In this document: positions 10,700-61,245 of the stretch, in pieces
Layout of the letters: each line of letters begins with the position of its first letter
Numbering within the stretch: position 1 is the first letter of the stretch
Assembly: GCA_964498965.1 (NCBI GenBank)
Contig: CAZCJU010000003.1
Span: forward strand, 107-64,106
Direction of reading: 5' to 3'
Source of the DNA: an uncultured Lachnospiraceae bacterium
Lineage (GTDB): Bacteria > Bacillota > Clostridia > Oscillospirales > CAG-272
Length of the DNA stretch: 64,000 nt
Made by a program: the position numbers and the translations under genes
Notes under the pieces: generated by a model
Databases searched by the model: none
Told to the model about the DNA's origin: nothing
The model's input: only the letters and a program-made list of their open reading frames with translations

Positions 10700-12084
10700 A
10701 GCTTTTCAACACGATGACAGGCGAAAAAACAGAATTCGTCCCCATGGAGGCGGGCAAGGTCAAGATGTATGCCTGCGGACCCACCGTATATAATTATTTC
10801 CACATAGGAAATGCGAGAATGCTCGTCGTATTCGACATGATGAGAAGATATATGGAATACCGAGGCTATGAGGTCAAATTCGTGCAGAATTTCACCGATG
10901 TCGATGACAAAATAATAAAGAAAGCCAACGAGGAGGGCATTTCGTCGAAGGAGCTTTCCGAAAAATATATAAAAGAATACTTCACCGATGCCGAGGGTCT
11001 CGGAATAAGGAAAGCCACCGTACATCCGAAAGCGACGGAAAACATCGACGAAATAATCGATATCGTAAAGACGCTTGTCGATAAGGGCTTTGCTTATCAG
11101 GTAGACTCGGACGTTTATTTCAGCACGAAAAAGTTCGGCGAATACGGCAAGCTGTCGCATATGCCCATAGACGAGCTTGAAGCGGGAGCGAGGATCGATG
11201 TAAACGATATCAAGCGTGACCCGCTTGATTTTGCACTTTGGAAAGGTGCGAAGCCGAACGAGCCGGCATGGGAAAGCCCGTGGGGCATGGGACGTCCCGG
11301 CTGGCATATAGAATGCTCGGCAATGGTTCGTCGTTATCTCGGAAAAACGATAGACATACACTGCGGCGGACGAGATCTTGTCTTTCCGCACCACGAAAAC
11401 GAGATAGCCCAGTCGGAATGTGCAAACGGCTGTGAATTTGTTCGATATTGGGTCCATAACGGCTTCATTTCCGTGGACAACGAAAAAATGTCGAAGTCTG
11501 CCGGGAATTTCTTCACCGTTCGTGAAGTAGCCGAAAAATACGGTTACGACGTTATAAGATATTTCCTGCTTTCCGCACATTACAGAAAGCCTATCAACTA
11601 TTCGCCGGAAATAATAGAGCAGGCGAAAGCCTCGCTTGAGAGAATACACAACTGCGAAGACAACCTATCGTTCATCATGAAGAACGCACCCGACGGAGAA
11701 GCATGCGAAGGTGTCGTATCCGTTTGCGAAAAAAGAAAAGCTCAATTTATCGAAGCTATGGACGACGATTTCAATACTGCGGACGGAATCGCCGCAATAT
11801 TCGAGCTTGTAAAGGATCTCAATTCGGCTTCCAAGAATATGACTGCGGGCTGTGCGAAATACGCATACGGATCGCTTCACGAGCTTACCTCGCTCATGGG
11901 GCTTGACAAAAAGAACGCTGCGGGCATTGACAGCGAATTTATCGAGGCGAAGATCGCCGAGCGTGCGGCGGCAAAGAAAGCCAAAAATTACGCATTGGCA
12001 GATGAAATACGCAAGGAGCTGTCCGATATGGGCATAATTTTAGAGGACACATCTGCCGGAACAAAATACAAATTCAAGGAATGA
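10696..12084 (+). CDS. cysS: Cysteine--tRNA ligase
   Basis: HIGN (YNYFHIGNARM) and KMSKS (EKMSKSAGN) class-I motifs. Track ORF trimmed to ATG 10696 (MKLFNTMTGEK), which overlaps the cysE stop (ATGA). Confidence 0.95.
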   Translation: MKLFNTMTGEKTEFVPMEAGKVKMYACGPTVYNYFHIGNARMLVVFDMMRRYMEYRGYEVKFVQNFTDVDDKIIKKANEEGISSKELSEKYIKEYFTDAEGLGIRKATVHPKATENIDEIIDIVKTLVDKGFAYQVDSDVYFSTKKFGEYGKLSHMPIDELEAGARIDVNDIKRDPLDFALWKGAKPNEPAWESPWGMGRPGWHIECSAMVRRYLGKTIDIHCGGRDLVFPHHENEIAQSECANGCEFVRYWVHNGFISVDNEKMSKSAGNFFTVREVAEKYGYDVIRYFLLSAHYRKPINYSPEIIEQAKASLERIHNCEDNLSFIMKNAPDGEACEGVVSVCEKRKAQFIEAMDDDFNTADGIAAIFELVKDLNSASKNMTAGCAKYAYGSLHELTSLMGLDKKNAAGIDSEFIEAKIAERAAAKKAKNYALADEIRKELSDMGIILEDTSAGTKYKFKE

Positions 12085-14135
12085 AAAAAAAGAAAAAGAT
12101 ACTTAACAAATTTTTTCTGTTCGGTGCGTTTTTCGTGCTTGTGTGTACCGTATATATGATCCGACTTGTAAATCTGCAAATAACGGGTGTTGACCGTTAT
12201 ACGTACAGTGCGTCGCAAACGACCGTATACCGCGAAAGCATTCAGGCGTTGCGAGGAGAGATATTCGACCGCAACGGTGTAAAGCTCGTGGCGAACGTCC
12301 GCACGTACTCGATCGAATTCGATTACGAGGCACTCGATGCCGCTTCGTCGGGCAAAAACGCCGCGATTGCCGAAGCCATATCCGTTCTCGAAGCGTGCGG
12401 GTGCGAGATCAAAACGGATTCGCCTTTTTCGGGTACATATCCGCACGTTCAATACAACGAAAAGCTGGAGCTTACCCGAATCAAATCGAGATTTGACAAT
12501 TTTTGCCGCAGTGCCGAGCTTGACGAGGACGTTTCGTGTATAGATTTTTACGAGTATCTGCTTGATCGGTATCGCCTTGTCGATAAAAGCGGAAATTTCA
12601 AGATCGACGCACGATATGTCGACACCGTAGTTGCCATAAGATACGATATGGAAACCTGCAATTTTTCGTCGTCAAGTCCGTATGTTCTCGTAAGCGATGC
12701 CGACAGTGCGTTGATCACGGCGATAAAAGAGCATGGCTGTCAGGGCGTGCGAACGGAAACCGAATGCAGCCGAGAGTATCTTTTTCCCGGTTCGGCATCG
12801 CACATTCTCGGCAGAGTAGGCAGCATTCCCGCCGAGGATAAGGAATACTATCTCGCAAAGGGCTACAGTCTTGATGCGACAGTCGGCATAGACGGAGTGG
12901 AAAAAGCATTCGAAGAGCTTTTGCGAGGTATCGACGGCGTTTGCGTGATAGAAAAGGACGAGAGCGGAAATGTTGTAAATTCGTACATTGAAAAAGAAGC
13001 CGTGGCGGGCAAAAACGTCTGGCTTACTATAGATATCGAGCTTCAACAGACCGCCGAAAAAGCACTTGCCGAAAATGTGGCATGGGTCAGAGAAAAGGGC
13101 GAAGCAACGGGCGAGGTAAACCAAGGCGAAAAAGCGGACAGCGGAGCGGTGACGGTGATAAATACGAACACCTTTGAAGTGCTTGCAATGGCATCGTACC
13201 CGACCTATGACTTAAACACGTTCGGCGAAAATTATTCTTCGCTCTTAAGCGACGAAAAAAAGCCGCTTTTCAACCGAGCTTTATTCGGAAACTACGAACC
13301 CGGTTCCACATTCAAGGTCGCAACATCCATAGCGGCACTCACCGAGGGAACGATAACCGCTTCGACGACGATATACGATTCGGGAAAATACGAATATTAC
13401 AAGGACTATCAGCCTAAATGCTGGCTTCACTCCGGACACGGAAACGTAAACGTGGTGTCCGCTCTCGGCTATTCATGCAATATATTTTTCTATGATGTCG
13501 GCAGGCGAATGGGAATAAACACGCTCAATGCCTACTGTACCAAGTTAGGACTCGGCGAATACACGGGAATAGAGATCTCGGAATCAAAGGGCGTACTTGC
13601 CTCTCCCGAGGCAAAGGAAGAAGCGGGAGGCGGCATATGGGTGCCGGGCGACACACTGCAAGCGGCGATCGGTCAGTCCCTGAATGCGGTAACTCCCTTG
13701 CAGCTTTCCTCGTACATTTCGACGGTAATTAACGGAGGAACACGGTACAAATGCACGCTTCTTTATAAGACCGTGCTTTATTCGGGTGAGGACGAGGAAT
13801 ACAACGTCCCCGTCGTTCTCGACTCCGTAAGCATTTCGCAATACAATGTAAACCTCGTAAAAAAGGGAATGAAAATGGCGAAGGAAAACACCTCGACCAC
13901 AAAGAAGTATAAGTTTTCTTTCGGTGCGAAAACGGGTACGGCACAGATATCAAAGGACAGCAACAATGCACTTATTACGGCATTCGCTCCCTATAACGAT
14001 CCAGAAATAACTGTTTCGTGCGTTATCGAGCAGGGTTTTTCGGGCGTAAATGCCGCACCTACCGTGTTAAAGGTCATATCGCACTATTTCGATCTCAACG
14101 ACGACGGCTCGGAAAAAACGAATACGGAACAGTAA
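12081..14135 (+). CDS. Class B penicillin-binding protein (PBP2/SpoVD-type transpeptidase)
   Basis: N-terminal TM. SxxK (GSTFKV), SxN (YSCN) and KTG (AKTGTA) motifs. The ATG overlaps the cysS stop (ATGA). Confidence 0.9.
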   Translation: MKKKKKILNKFFLFGAFFVLVCTVYMIRLVNLQITGVDRYTYSASQTTVYRESIQALRGEIFDRNGVKLVANVRTYSIEFDYEALDAASSGKNAAIAEAISVLEACGCEIKTDSPFSGTYPHVQYNEKLELTRIKSRFDNFCRSAELDEDVSCIDFYEYLLDRYRLVDKSGNFKIDARYVDTVVAIRYDMETCNFSSSSPYVLVSDADSALITAIKEHGCQGVRTETECSREYLFPGSASHILGRVGSIPAEDKEYYLAKGYSLDATVGIDGVEKAFEELLRGIDGVCVIEKDESGNVVNSYIEKEAVAGKNVWLTIDIELQQTAEKALAENVAWVREKGEATGEVNQGEKADSGAVTVINTNTFEVLAMASYPTYDLNTFGENYSSLLSDEKKPLFNRALFGNYEPGSTFKVATSIAALTEGTITASTTIYDSGKYEYYKDYQPKCWLHSGHGNVNVVSALGYSCNIFFYDVGRRMGINTLNAYCTKLGLGEYTGIEISESKGVLASPEAKEEAGGGIWVPGDTLQAAIGQSLNAVTPLQLSSYISTVINGGTRYKCTLLYKTVLYSGEDEEYNVPVVLDSVSISQYNVNLVKKGMKMAKENTSTTKKYKFSFGAKTGTAQISKDSNNALITAFAPYNDPEITVSCVIEQGFSGVNAAPTVLKVISHYFDLNDDGSEKTNTEQ

Positions 14136-14196
14136 ACGCAAAACGGTTTCGTGTTTAACAAGGTCCGTGTTTATCGAAAATTTTCGTAAAAAGCTC

Positions 14197-14240
14197 ATAC
14201 CGCACTCTTTGACAGGGTGCGGTATTTGTTGCTTTTCGTT
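14197..14240 (+). terminator. Rho-independent terminator after PBP gene
   Basis: ATACCGCAC (14197-14205) pairs with GTGCGGTAT (14217-14225), followed by TTGTTGCTTTTCGTTT. Confidence 0.6.
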
Positions 14241-14299
14241 TCGGGCGGAAATTTTTTGACAACTTTAAGTTGCAAACCGGTCGTTGCCTTATCGATTTC

Positions 14300-14445
14300 G
14301 AGCCGCACAGACTGACTTAGATAGTACGATAGGATAATGCCCTCATCCGTCAATCCTTCGGATTGCCGCCTTTCCCCGGTGGGGGAAGGCTTACGAGAGA
14401 GGTTTCGCCGACACCTTTCCCCGGTAGGGGAAGGCTTACGGGGAT
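14300..14445 (+). repeat. Modular hairpin intergenic repeat, copy A (most complete)
   Basis: M1 GCACAGACTGACTTAGATAGTAC (14305-14327). M2 GGATAATGCCCTCATCCGTC (14332-14351). UUCG hairpin CAATCCttcgGGATTG (14351-14365). Two CCTTTCCCC-ggtr-GGGGAAGG hairpins, each followed by CTTACGRG (14368-14398 and 14414-14443). Homologous copies at 43060, 61165, 35868, 48594 and 54905. Confidence 0.8.
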
Positions 14446-14561
14446 ATGCGAAAAAATTTTTGAAATGCGAGCTTACAAACCAAAAGCGAAATTTCACAGT
14501 ATAAAACTCCTTTATTGACAGATAATAACAGTATCACAGAAGCGAAAAGGAGATTTTATAT

Positions 14562-15092
14562 ATGAAAGCCACGGGAATCGTAAGGAAGATCGACGATTTG
14601 GGACGAATAGTTATTCCGAAAGAGATACGTCGAACGCTGTTTATTCGAGAGGGCGATCCGCTTGAAATATATGTCGGCGGTGACGGAGATATAATTTTCA
14701 GGAAATATTCACCGGTAAAGGAACTGGGAGCCATAGCCGCCGACATAGTATGCGGCGTGGCAAAGGCTTGCTCGTCGGGTGCGGCTGTATTCGACCGCGA
14801 CGAGCTGTCCGCACACTGTTCCCTGCCCAAATCGGCGGCAAGCGGAAAGATGTCGAAAAAGCTGTCCGATATTTGCGTACAGCGTAAGCCTGTGCTGTGC
14901 ATCGACGAAAATGTGCCGTTTACCGAGGGCGGCACACTTCTTGTCGATGCGTGCTGTCCGATAGTCGCAAACGGCGAGGTGATCGGCTGTGTGGCATCGG
15001 CACGCCACGAAGACGGCGGAAGCGGTCGTGACGGCTCGCTCAAAGCGGTAAGTGTTGCGGCATATTTTCTCGGAACGAGGCTTTCCGATTGA
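14562..15092 (+). CDS. spoVT: Stage V sporulation protein T (AbrB-family regulator with C-terminal GAF-like domain)
   Basis: MKATGIVRKIDDLGRIVIPKEIRRTLFIREGDPLEIY is the AbrB/SpoVT swapped-hairpin domain. Length of 176 aa fits SpoVT rather than AbrB. AAAGGAG lies upstream of the ATG. Confidence 0.9.
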   Translation: MKATGIVRKIDDLGRIVIPKEIRRTLFIREGDPLEIYVGGDGDIIFRKYSPVKELGAIAADIVCGVAKACSSGAAVFDRDELSAHCSLPKSAASGKMSKKLSDICVQRKPVLCIDENVPFTEGGTLLVDACCPIVANGEVIGCVASARHEDGGSGRDGSLKAVSVAAYFLGTRLSD

Positions 15093-29666: not shown

Positions 29667-30374
29667 ATGTTTGCCATATATAAAAAAGAGTTGCGTACAT
29701 ATTTCACGACCTTTATAGGCTACGTGTTCATTGCCGCATTTCTTGTGATGTCAAGTGTTTTATTCATCATTTCGACGTTGTCGCAGGGAGCGGACGCCGA
29801 TATAACCTCGTACTACACGCTTGTGATACTTGCGTTTGTGGTGCTGATACCGCTTCTTACGATGAAGCTGTTTTCGGAAGAAAAGCGTCAAAAGACCGAG
29901 GTGCTTCTTTTGACCTCGCCCGTAAGCCTTTTCGGCATAGTTTTGGCAAAATATCTTGCGGCGTTCACCATGTTTGCCGCTACTCTTATCGCTTCGTGTG
30001 TGAATTTGATACCGTTATATATGTACGGTGAACAGAACACGGGCGTGATACTCGGAAATCTGTTTTCCGTATTGCTTATCGGAAGCGGCTTCATAGCTAT
30101 CGGCGTATTCATATCCTCGCTTACCGAAAACCAGCTTGTTTCGGCCGTTTGCACTATCGGTGCGATAATGCTTCTTCTTGCCGTGGGAATGCTGTCGACC
30201 TCTATAGGCTTTCAGCCGTTGAGGGAGGTATTGAATTTCTTCTCCATATTCAACAGATACACGTATTTCACATACGGCATAGTCGATTATTCGGCGTTGA
30301 TATATTATTTTTCGATAACTGTAATATTCCTGTTTCTGACCGTTCGTGTATTCGAGCGACGCAGATGGGCATGA
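29667..30374 (+). CDS. ABC-2 type permease (GldF-like)
   Basis: 235 aa, 6 predicted TM helices, immediately downstream of the ATPase. Confidence 0.75.
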   Translation: MFAIYKKELRTYFTTFIGYVFIAAFLVMSSVLFIISTLSQGADADITSYYTLVILAFVVLIPLLTMKLFSEEKRQKTEVLLLTSPVSLFGIVLAKYLAAFTMFAATLIASCVNLIPLYMYGEQNTGVILGNLFSVLLIGSGFIAIGVFISSLTENQLVSAVCTIGAIMLLLAVGMLSTSIGFQPLREVLNFFSIFNRYTYFTYGIVDYSALIYYFSITVIFLFLTVRVFERRRWA

Positions 30375-35860: not shown

Positions 35861-35867
35861 ATATAGC

Positions 35868-35916
35868 GGAATAACGCCCTAATCCGGCAATCCGCACAAA
35901 CCAACTCAGTGAGTAC
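35868..35916. repeat. Partial copy C of the modular intergenic repeat (modules in swapped order)
   Basis: GGAATAACGCCCTAATCCG (M2-like, 35868-35886) followed by GCACAAACCAACTCAGTGAGTAC (M1-like, 35894-35916). Confidence 0.6.
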
Positions 35917-43059: not shown

Positions 43060-43195
43060 GGTCGCACGGACTAACTCAGTCGGTACGGCGGGATAACGCC
43101 CTCATCCGTCGGTTTCGCCAACGCCTTCCCCAAGGGGGAAGGCGTTACAGAGGTACGATCGACACCTTTCCCGGATGGAAAAGGCTTACGAAACG
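43060..43195 (+). repeat. Modular hairpin intergenic repeat, copy B
   Basis: M1 GCACGGACTAACTCAGTCGGTAC (43064-43086). M2 GGATAACGCCCTCATCCGTC (43091-43110). Hairpin ACGCCTTCCCCaagGGGGAAGGCGT (43121-43145). Hairpin CCTTTCCcggatGGAAAAGG plus CTTACG (43165-43190). Confidence 0.8.
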
Positions 43196-48396: not shown

Positions 48397-48593
48397 TACA
48401 TTTTTCGTAAATACCGCTCGTAAATACCGAAAAAACAACGCCTTTGCAAAAAACAACGCACCTCTCTCGCAAGCCTTGATATTTCGCCGGTCACGCAAAG
48501 CTTAACCCTATCTTCCGAATCTTCCCCGCTCTGTTCCATCGCAAGCCCTCCGCTTCAGAGAACGGACCGTAGCTTGCACTCTCTCAAGTCCAA

Positions 48594-48700
48594 GCCTTCC
48601 TCCTTAAGGGAAGGCTACGGGAGAGGAGGCTGATACTGCCGCCTTCTCCGAAAGGGACGGCTTTATGAGGGGAGGAAAGATAAAGGTTAACGAGAGTGAG
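48594..48700 (+). repeat. Degenerate copy D of the hairpin repeat family
   Basis: GCCTTCCtccttaaGGGAAGGC plus TACGGGAGAGG (48594-48626). GCCGCCTTCTCCgaaaGGGACGGC plus TTTATGAGGGG (48638-48672). Further GGTTAACGAGAG unit. Confidence 0.6.
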
Positions 48701-48730: not shown

Positions 48731-48773
48731 GAGAAAAAGCCTCCCTTTACGAGTGAGTTCGGGGGAGGCTTTT
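48731..48773 (-). terminator. Rho-independent terminator after dockerin-protein gene
   Basis: Minus strand AAAAGCCTCCCCC-loop-GGGAGGCTTTTTCTCT. GC-rich 7-9 bp stem followed by a T-run. Confidence 0.65.
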
Positions 48774-48817
48774 AAGTTATAGGGCAGACGGTTATGAAGG
48801 AGGGGGTAAGGAGAAGA

Positions 48818-54904: not shown

Positions 54905-55050
54905 CCAAGGCTTATGAAGGGATAAGATGGGAAAGCTTACGAGGAGTAGTGATGAGAATGCTTGTATGAGAAGTCAAAGGGTCGAAGATTTGCGTGGGAA
55001 CGGAAAGGTGGTCTGCGTAAGTGAGTAAAAACGGAAAAGTTTGCGAGGGT
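54905..55050. repeat. Degenerate copy F: run of GCTTAYGAGRRG-like units
   Basis: GGCTTATGAAGGG, AGCTTACGAGGAG, TGCTTGTATGAGAAG, CTGCGTAAGTGAG and TTTGCGAGGGTCGG resemble the CTTACGRGAGG tails of copies A, B and D. Hairpins are mostly eroded. Confidence 0.4.
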
Positions 55051-61164: not shown

Positions 61165-61245
61165 CCCTCCTCTTTTGCTCTCTCCCCAAGCCTTCCCCCG
61201 GGGAGGGTGGCAACACGAAGGATCGACGGATGAGGGTTTCGCCTT
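61165..61245 (-). repeat. Copy E of the hairpin repeat family (inverted orientation)
   Basis: The reverse complement AAACCCTCATCCGTCGATCCTTCGTGTTGCCACCCTCCCCGGGGGAAGGCTTGGGGAGAGAGC aligns base-for-base with copy A positions 14338-14400. Confidence 0.75.

Follow-up and report, generated by a model that had tools for sequence, protein, structure and literature searches.

Within the 64,000-nucleotide stretch of DNA analyzed here (the window), which belongs to contig CAZCJU010000003.1 of an uncultured Lachnospiraceae bacterium, a modular noncoding element lies at positions 14300-14445 between a PBP gene and spoVT, and related copies are found in other intergenic regions of the same stretch. We consider it somewhat probable that these copies are gene-less, partly decayed representatives of a widespread interspersed palindromic DNA element that is linked to DUF559 endonucleases. 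In the full-length form that we propose, the spacer of approximately 48 nt at the center of an inverted pair of repeat units (a doublet) would be replaced by a gene of approximately 120 codons encoding a DUF559 endonuclease of the Vsr/PD-(D/E)xK fold. By analogy with known systems, DUF559 may mobilize the units, the nuclease acting in trans on the hairpins and driving their spread and turnover, either as RAYT is thought to act on repetitive extragenic palindromic (REP) sequences and REPINs, or in the manner of a homing nuclease at its own site. The copies in the window would then be solo units that carry a lineage-specific head module (M1) and tail modules, with one of them (copy D) a deletion fragment, and they would be passive relics whose greatest effect is to supply neighboring transcripts with stable hairpins.

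The repeat family and its turnover

The units of the family have the consensus order of a conserved core of single-strand type, CCCTCATCCGTC, a variable but paired hairpin (hp1), CCA, a second hairpin (hp2) of the form CCTTCCCC-loop-GGGGAAGG, and C(T)n, so that the basic unit is ~55-65 nt long with a short T-rich tail. A metagenome scan with the pattern CCCTCATCCGTC N18-36 GGGGAAGGC, which covers the junction from module M2 to the hairpin, returned at least 120 loci that contain the unit, the majority in human gut and rumen samples and a few in soil-type ones. A covariance model, R1, was built from 58 metagenome units with all window sequence excluded, and it found 247 units in 670 kb (100 loci). 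When applied to the window, R1 recovered copy A with 61.3 bits, copy C with 45.7 bits, and copy B with 45.4 bits, each at full length, and regions D, E, and F were not significant. Copies A, B, and C belong to this widespread family, and the family is not private to the source genome, being abundant in gut, rumen, and other metagenomes. The original prediction had likened the element to REP sequences and to bacterial interspersed mosaic elements (BIMEs), and this description holds for a modular, hairpin-forming, strictly intergenic repeat family.

Units frequently lie next to one another, and of 83 neighboring pairs, 49 have their cores facing at a distance of ~40 nt, 18 are tail-to-tail, and 16 are in tandem. 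Doublets are ~170 nt long with arms of ~55-65 nt, and their center of 47-49 nt has a covarying hairpin of its own, CCCG-NNNN-CGGG. The absence of terminal inverted repeats that had been noted from the window is therefore correct for the decayed local copies, which are solo arms, but not for the inverted-repeat doublets formed outside the window, which do have such arms. Comparison of near-identical contigs revealed a whole doublet in one where the other has a single hp2 hairpin, a doublet opposite a single unit with the junction at an AGGGG microhomology, a 60-nt module inserted within hp2, and a 61-nt solo unit present or absent with the 4-nt GGGC at both borders; other indels end in hairpin or AGGGG microhomology. 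The comparison of relatives that had been suggested as a check thus shows that units differ between related contigs, and the family is both abundant and gained and lost between relatives. Tandem reiteration is seen in contig L139 (2890-3012), where three hp2 hairpins (GCCTTCCCCCCTCAGGGGGGAAGCC) follow each other with an 8-nt spacer, AAGGAAAA, which is the same type of reiteration as that of the two hp2 plus CTTACG modules in copy A. In contigs L066 and L071, which are otherwise 93-97% identical, L066 has a 175-nt insertion (12722-12898) of an unrelated palindromic element, so these genomes also carry other small mobile repeats.

Relatives were reached through a protein search with the PBP. In a relative with an 89% identical PBP, all of the ~20 contigs end ~115 nt past the PBP stop codon, within CTCCCTCATCC, and one contig starts within GGGGGAAGGCTTACGGGGG, beside the mnmE stop codon; the longest read-through of the PBP-spoVT spacer in this relative contains the same modules in a different arrangement. 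In a relative whose PBP is 78% identical, there was no unit in the PBP-spoVT spacer and none in 22 kb. Its spacer (L008, 12046-12469) is 422 nt long, compared with 426 nt in the window, and is filled with unrelated sequence that has short direct repeats of its own (gatagtcaac...). Module M1 was absent from the at least 120 metagenome loci listed, save for one chance-like match.

The reach of the unit extends beyond the Clostridia. A BLAST search of phage and plasmid sequences with the consensus unit matched a few records of uncultured gut phages and a Methylosinus plasmid, and viral contigs gave no match. The Methylosinus plasmid contains a complete doublet, whose plus unit is full length and scores 58 bits, and the Clostridial unit is therefore also present in Alphaproteobacteria. 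This doublet (Methylosinus trichosporium OB3b plasmid pOB3b1, L138, 1477-1500 and 2917-3060) is interrupted by an IS4-family element, which occupies the loop of the left hp2 and is accompanied by the 5-bp duplication CAAAG, much like those insertion sequence (IS) elements of E. coli whose targets are REP loops. A search of 185,579 species genomes with a 20-mer of M2 found chance matches and two matches in coding sequence only. The latter are the sole Firmicutes matches (L004, 6080-6099; L005, 1173-1192), and lie in homologous genes, where they encode WTDEGVIL; from their sequences we take these genes to be glycosidase-like, and the likeness to the LTDEG pseudo-peptide of the repeat is a coincidence.

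A literature search by exact sequence and by concept found no description of the repeat family. A match in Rfam would have counted against the original prediction, and the family has none in Rfam 15 at gathering or permissive thresholds: the whole window gave no match at the gathering threshold, copies A and B produced only E-values above 2 when scanned permissively, and in 26 related loci only unrelated families (tRNA, 5S rRNA, and ssnA) were found. Two other identities were considered and rejected. Some cores contain CUGAUGA, as hammerhead ribozymes do, though the U is often G, there is neither GAAA nor a stem III, and there is no Rfam match; and an origin of M1 and M2 from tRNA or coding sequence is contradicted by stop codons in the shared frame of copy A and by the lack of coding conservation.

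DUF559 genes between inverted units

ORFs were sought between head-to-head unit pairs that are 300-2600 nt apart. The two tightest pairs, at L041 and L085, enclose genes for DUF559 proteins (PF04480) of 116-131 amino acids, with scores of 104-107 bits against a cut-off of 20.6, and what lies within the remaining three is a housekeeping gene (aspartate-semialdehyde dehydrogenase) or ORFs without a Pfam match. A third locus, L061, has a DUF559 gene whose product is 51-56% identical, in the same setting between inverted units, and in the cases examined every gene within a tight inverted doublet encodes DUF559. At all three loci the core appears in reverse complement (GAC(G/T)GATGAGGG) ahead of the gene and stops 3-15 nt short of the ATG, which places its GAGGG in the position of a ribosome-binding site, and the downstream core begins a few codons past the end of the DUF559 domain. 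The ORF replaces the 47-49-nt doublet center exactly. Contig L041 (1-1145) repeats itself with a period of 793 nt, comprising unit, DUF559 gene, unit, and a 330-nt spacer, and this may reflect a tandem duplication, a circular molecule, or an assembly artifact.

To approach the linkage from the protein side, a search with protein alone collected 3671 DUF559 homologs at E < 1e-10, and contigs were taken for six of them. All seven Clostridia DUF559 genes on these contigs, which are close relatives of one found beside a unit, have an R1 unit directly upstream in minus orientation and another at the 3' end in plus orientation, with 12.7-70 bits upstream and 21-58 bits downstream. The upstream and downstream units score 70 and 45 bits at L143, 65 and 43 bits at L145, 24.5 and 49 bits for the first gene of L139, 60 and 58 bits for its second gene, and 22 and 23 bits at L160. 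At L151, the upstream unit scores 43 bits, with a further unit at 68, and the downstream unit is degenerate, and the weakest upstream unit is that of L159, with 12.7 bits (E 0.007), accompanied by a downstream unit of 21 bits. The Clostridia genes lie between housekeeping genes, namely purH and purD, a comM-like gene and thiI, and gyrA and rnhA. Most of the best 120 of the 3671 homologs are on contigs of 0.5-3 kb, as would be expected if multicopy flanking repeats break assemblies. DUF559 genes are linked to the repeat units, and the earlier statement that no protein is associated with the element is thus valid within the window and invalid elsewhere, where a DUF559 endonuclease gene is found between two inverted units. 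A nuclease gene bracketed by inverted units, together with hundreds of gene-less units, is the same signature that lies behind the hypothesis that RAYT acts on REP sequences.

Comparable settings were seen outside the Firmicutes. A Novosphingobium DUF559 gene is bracketed by 66-nt inverted repeats that are 89% complementary and score 22-36 bits with R1, and a Deinococcus DUF559 gene between paaD and paaZ is bracketed by 56-nt inverted repeats that are 98% complementary. The hp2 part of the Deinococcus arm (L156) matches other Deinococcus plasmids, Rahnella megaplasmids, and one Aeromonas caviae record at 86-95%, and to judge from such sequence matches, related C/G-rich hairpin units may be widespread in Proteobacteria. 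In the case of a Sinorhizobium DUF559 gene and of E. coli ycjD, an inverted doublet is found just downstream of the gene; in E. coli (L157, 1531-1771; L164, MG1655 1351039-1351407) it is a doublet of ~240 nt, no more than 25 nt past ycjD, with arms that start with CCCTCACCCC. The E. coli doublet is not annotated as a repeat in MG1655, and its likeness to the unit is at the level of motifs only (R1 below 7 bits), and the query region, which includes ycjD itself, matches 4 places in the median E. coli genome, indicating that parts of it are multicopy. Nothing was found adjacent to a Neisseria DUF559 gene. As a tentative generalization, which we regard as the less probable outcome, DUF559 proteins, including E. 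coli YcjD, may be the trans-acting nucleases of REP-like palindromes across phyla, a counterpart of RAYT on the PD-(D/E)xK fold, with the repeats of gut Clostridia as their nonautonomous offspring.

Across 12 DUF559 sequences, the residues D49, E60, D62, G63, and H66 are invariant (D...E-x-D-G-x-x-H), and the nearest solved structure is 3HRL, an uncharacterized "endonuclease-like protein" (E 2e-11). The Vsr and DUF559 families and a group I intron homing endonuclease have been placed in one clade (Steczkiewicz et al., PMC3424549). Independently, the annotation "DUF559 domain-containing protein" has been listed as enriched among genes with flanking invertible repeats, at an odds ratio of 14.3, as has "endonuclease domain-containing protein," at 9.6 (Milman et al., PMC9881135). 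Our literature search found no paper that links DUF559 to interspersed repeats and no described role for DUF559.

A different relationship between gene and repeat has to be weighed, in which the units spread by other means, whether a RAYT/IS200-like transposase, an unknown enzyme, or slippage and recombination at the hairpins, and DUF559 is a homing-type parasite that targets the doublet center and has inserted there, the units being its landing site and not its own ends. We judge this unlikely, though it has more in its favor than the other alternatives. The exact replacement of the 47-49-nt center is what such a parasite would produce, as is the arrangement at L143, where the same plus-unit sequence is present on both sides of the minus unit-ORF-plus unit block, a pattern that copying into a unit already in place would leave. 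In addition, an ORF is lacking from more than 95% of units, a known homing endonuclease is a member of the Vsr/DUF559 clade (PMC3424549), and other mobile elements do enter the hairpins, as the IS4-family element in the hp2 loop with its CAAAG duplication illustrates. Against it, the gene in Deinococcus and Novosphingobium moves with its own near-perfect inverted arms of 56-66 nt into operon spacers, and few other copies of the arm are present on the Deinococcus replicon (three places, including the two arms themselves). Moreover, no RAYT or other transposase was seen beside the units, though RAYT/IS200 genes were not searched for systematically and whole genomes were not scanned. A comparison of L139 with L151 at the gyrA-side DUF559 gene yielded no allelic pair of empty and occupied sites, the flanks being too diverged.

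Several observations count against the proposal that the window copies derive from a DUF559-linked element. We know of no DUF559 protein for which cleavage, binding, or transposition has been demonstrated. The indels compared show no consistent target-site duplication or defined ends, and all of them could be deletions by recombination at hairpins rather than insertions. No DUF559 gene or remnant was detected in the 64-kb window by tblastn or by hidden Markov model search, and it is for this reason that its copies are read as nonautonomous relics. Neither M1 nor the CTTACG tail was seen outside the window lineage, to which both are specific, and the Deinococcus arms have a module order unlike that of Clostridia. 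Finally, a conserved core and hp2 beside a freely varying hp1 are unlike the neutral decay of selfish copies, such that a function at the level of the host could be considered, and the invariance of the core and of half of hp2 is itself partly built in, since the units were found with a pattern that fixes both.

Hairpin structure and the copies in the window

The search pattern left hp1 unconstrained, which makes this hairpin the informative part of the unit. Five of the six pairs of hp1 change on both sides, and 88 cells of the alignment are changed on both sides compared with 24.6 in shuffles, a count that none of 500 shuffles reached. Pairing holds in 94% of cells, a figure that falls to ~57-60% when the partner is slid by one column. 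The original prediction that stem potential is kept is therefore borne out by hp1, whose stem persists while its sequence changes. The single-sequence folding energy of copy A, by comparison, is not better than that of shuffles (z -0.8), so the evidence for structure comes from comparison and not from energy. The hp1 loops are of the form C-TNC-G in 51 of 114 units, which reads C-GNA-G on the opposite strand; a GNA triloop with a closing C-G pair is the classic example of a very stable mini-hairpin in DNA. In hp2, the left arm is near-invariant although it lies outside the search pattern.

It could be argued that the units act instead as RNA, as 3'-UTR (untranslated region) or intergenic hairpins that terminate transcription or block 3' exonucleases and that are kept by the host. 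This would suit the location of copies just past stop codons, the strong G+C hairpin of hp2, and the family consensus CTTT(T) after hp2, where T makes up 66%, 58%, and 49% of the next three positions; a doublet would terminate in both directions, and E. coli REP elements stabilize upstream mRNA. However, units in tandem gene contexts show no orientation bias (25 co-oriented and 35 anti-oriented), and units avoid coding sequence, 35% of them overlapping crude ORFs against a coding fraction of 82%, both sets of figures being approximate as the crude ORF calls are noisy in high-GC contigs. G-U pairs are slightly commoner on the plus strand, at 13 of 781 hp1 pairs compared with 3 of 729 for the opposite strand, yet G-U accounts for under 2% of pairs in all, and only 13% of units have at least five T in the 7 nt after hp2. 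No repeat copy passes a terminator scan of the window, in which only the canonical PBP terminator at 14197-14225 was detected; copy A lies behind this terminator, and copy B is antisense to its flanking genes. There is also no Rfam match, and the link to DUF559 would be left unexplained. An RNA-level role for the host is possible for individual copies, and as an account of the family it is less probable even than that of a homing-type parasite. Occurrence in both orientations, Watson-Crick pairing, C-GNA-G loops, and the weak tail together point to a REP/BIME-like repeat that operates as DNA, with hairpins relevant on either strand, and not to a strand-specific RNA.

That the likeness among the window copies is due to chance or to low-complexity G+C hairpins such as ordinary terminators has a probability close to nil, since, although regions E and F are at chance level and the fold energy of copy A is unremarkable, the window has three occurrences each of M1 (GCACRGACTRACTYAGNNNGTAC) and M2 (GGATAAYGCCCTCATCCGTC), where 0.03 and 0.01 would be expected and none of 100 shuffles reaches three, the R1 E-values of A, B, and C range from 1e-10 to 9e-15, and hundreds of homologous units exist elsewhere; pattern counts and R1 thus refute a chance likeness for A, B, C, and D. 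The same counts establish M1 and M2 as recurrent modules, as first described.

Copy A, which is present at 14300-14445 as originally noted, lies in the spacer of 426 nt that separates the PBP gene (12081-14135) from spoVT (14562-15092). It begins with the lineage-specific head module M1 (GCACAGACTGACTTAGATAGTAC) at 14305..14327 (+), 5' of a full family unit at 14332..14398 (+), which R1 matches over its full length (61.3 bits, E 8.8e-15). This unit comprises the core CCCTCATCCGTC at 14340-14351, the variable hairpin hp1 (CAATCC-TTC-GGATTG) at 14351-14365, and the near-invariant hairpin hp2 (CCTTTCCCC-GGT-GGGGGAAGG) at 14369-14389, all on the plus strand, and ends with the start of the CTTACG tail. 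The first stem had been reported as a stem with a UUCG loop, CAATCCttcgGGATTG; a hairpin does exist there, but the quoted sequence has one G too many, and the loop is not a UUCG tetraloop. The tail module CTTACGAGAGAGG, 3' of hp2 at 14390..14402 (+), recurs after the second hairpin of copy A, in copy B, and in the 89% relative (L011). A second, partial unit without a core follows at 14405..14443 (+) and consists of an hp1 remnant (GGTTTCGCC), GACA, hp2 (CCTTTCCCC-GGTA-GGGGAAGG), and CTTACGGGG; it scores 18.1 bits with R1 (E 0.0026, model positions 19-66) and in the direct-repeat search is 96% identical to 14369-14395.

Copy B was described as a repetition of copy A in the same orientation, and the two do have in common a 48-nt block of M1 and M2 at 79% identity. 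Its M1 was located by pattern match at 43064..43086 (+) and is followed by a full unit at 43091..43151 (+; R1 45.4 bits, E 1.4e-10), in which the core at 43099-43110 (+) leads to a weak hp1 and then to an hp2 with a perfect 11-bp stem, ACGCCTTCCCC-AAG-GGGGAAGGCGT, at 43121-43145 (+). The flanking genes, encoding a GDSL lipase and an aminotransferase, are on the minus strand. A second, degenerate hp2-like module (CCTTTCCC-GGAT-GGAAAAGG plus CTTACG) at 43156..43193 (+) forms a partial unit that is not significant alone with R1 (10.5 bits, E 0.27) and that is a 74% member of a direct repeat with copy A. The hairpin plus CTTACG module is in this way a three-copy direct repeat, in agreement with the initial reading.

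Copy C is a full unit without M1 at 61182..61244 on the minus strand (R1 45.7 bits, E 1.2e-10), which begins 14 nt past the trkH stop codon, upstream of a sigma-factor gene. It is an inverted copy of A, as had been claimed, though far from "nearly base-for-base," with 40-nt arms that are 83% complementary. Copy D, at 35866..35916 (+), is a rearranged fragment without hp2 that was missed by R1 and that has a degenerate core (GAATAACGCCCTAATCCGGC), half of hp1 (AATCC), and then M1, which agrees with the reported order of M2 before M1; it lies between convergent genes, an aldehyde dehydrogenase-like gene and mutS, directly after a terminator. Two further regions had been proposed as eroded copies. 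Region E (48586..48700, no strand assigned; 48594-48700 in the original prediction) is possibly an eroded pair of hp2-like hairpins with tail-like motifs, and its membership is doubtful, with R1 scores of 10.4 bits (E 0.28) and 7 bits (E 2.2). Region F (54905-55050) is without hairpins and has just matches to the tail motif with three mismatches, and Tandem Repeats Finder detects only an unrelated 10-nt repeat there. Given the weakness of E and F, the "six copies" become three full units, two partial units, and one fragment, with E doubtful and F unsupported.

The remaining long intergenic regions of the window contain no further copies, and the window has single units only and no doublets. 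Every copy is intergenic and near stop codons or terminators, as was observed from the outset, and all of the flanking genes are housekeeping genes. The arrangement is not that of a CRISPR array, again as first judged, as the two hairpin modules of copy A are 45 nt apart, the other copies are tens of kb away, and a match to CRISPR-DR57 has an E-value of 3.9. With up to three mismatches allowed, the tail motif occurs 18 times in the whole window compared with 7.2 expected. Two matches to the tail motif GGCTTAYGRGRGRGG with one mismatch lie inside called ORFs, at 48461-48475 (-) and 29914-29928 (-); one of the two falls at the 5' end of the ORF for a SpoU methylase, and the true start of this ORF may therefore be further downstream. 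At 48735-48775, there is a bidirectional terminator-like hairpin (AAAAAGCCTCCC...GGGGAGGCTTTT) whose loop, TTTACGAGTGAG, resembles the tail module CTTACGAGAGAG.

Locally, the copies probably do no more than place extra hairpins in or near transcripts and create a spurious ORF. The latter, at 14195-14497 (-), encodes KPSPTGER twice and LTDEG, in accord with the suspicion that the repeats generate false reading frames, and it should not carry a gene annotation. The practical point for the window is modest: the repeats are real but most likely inert relics.

Significance and comparison with known systems

If a partnership between DUF559 and the repeats were true, it would provide a testable function for DUF559, a family with thousands of members and one solved structure, and the REP/RAYT model for the acquisition of interspersed palindromes would gain a further class of enzyme, unrelated to the first. 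It would also explain breaks in short-read assemblies of gut microbiomes, every contig of the 89% relative ending in a unit, and the published enrichment of DUF559 among candidates for "programmed inversion" would be accounted for by the flanking inverted units. Units of this kind generate spurious ORFs with the motifs PSPxGE and TDEG.

Among known repeats, miniature inverted-repeat transposable elements such as the Correia elements of Neisseria and RUP, BOX, and SPRITE of Streptococcus pneumoniae are similar to the doublets of ~170 nt in having long inverted terminal arms, in being nonautonomous and intergenic, in generating spurious ORFs, and in breaking short-read assemblies, and BOX is likewise modular. 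The family described here differs from them in having no DDE-transposase parent and no consistent target-site duplication, and solo units and hairpins are common in it. Palindrome-associated transposable elements and the ends of IS200-IS605 elements also have subterminal hairpins beside a conserved single-strand motif, as well as GNA triloops, whereas there is no TnpA or TnpB gene near the units and no Rfam match to HEARO or other omega-RNA families. In the case of free-standing Vsr-fold homing endonuclease genes, exemplified by I-Bth0305I (PDB 3R3P, PMC3424549), a small nuclease gene is likewise positioned precisely within a conserved sequence and between housekeeping genes, but the DUF559 gene is not in an intron or intein, and its site is itself a multicopy repeat.

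The BIMEs of E. coli offer a descriptive resemblance, being mosaics of palindromic units and short modules in alternating orientation, with tandem reiteration of modules (two hp2 plus tail in the window, three hp2 plus spacer in L139) and hot spots of IS insertion, though there is no sequence relationship. Finally, the REP/REPIN-RAYT systems of Enterobacteria and Pseudomonas share with this family short multicopy extragenic palindromes in both orientations, frequent inverted doublets, compensatory changes in the stems, and a small nuclease-type gene bracketed by inverted units, with most units gene-less. The bracketed gene, however, encodes DUF559, of the Vsr/PD-(D/E)xK fold, and not a Y1 HUH transposase, and several DUF559 copies can cluster, as in L139. 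The unit is longer, with two hairpins and a 12-nt core, and, unlike REP-RAYT systems, which are specific to a species or genus, it crosses phyla, from Clostridia to Alphaproteobacteria. The bracketing of a DUF559 gene by these repeats suggests a new partnership of the REP-RAYT kind.

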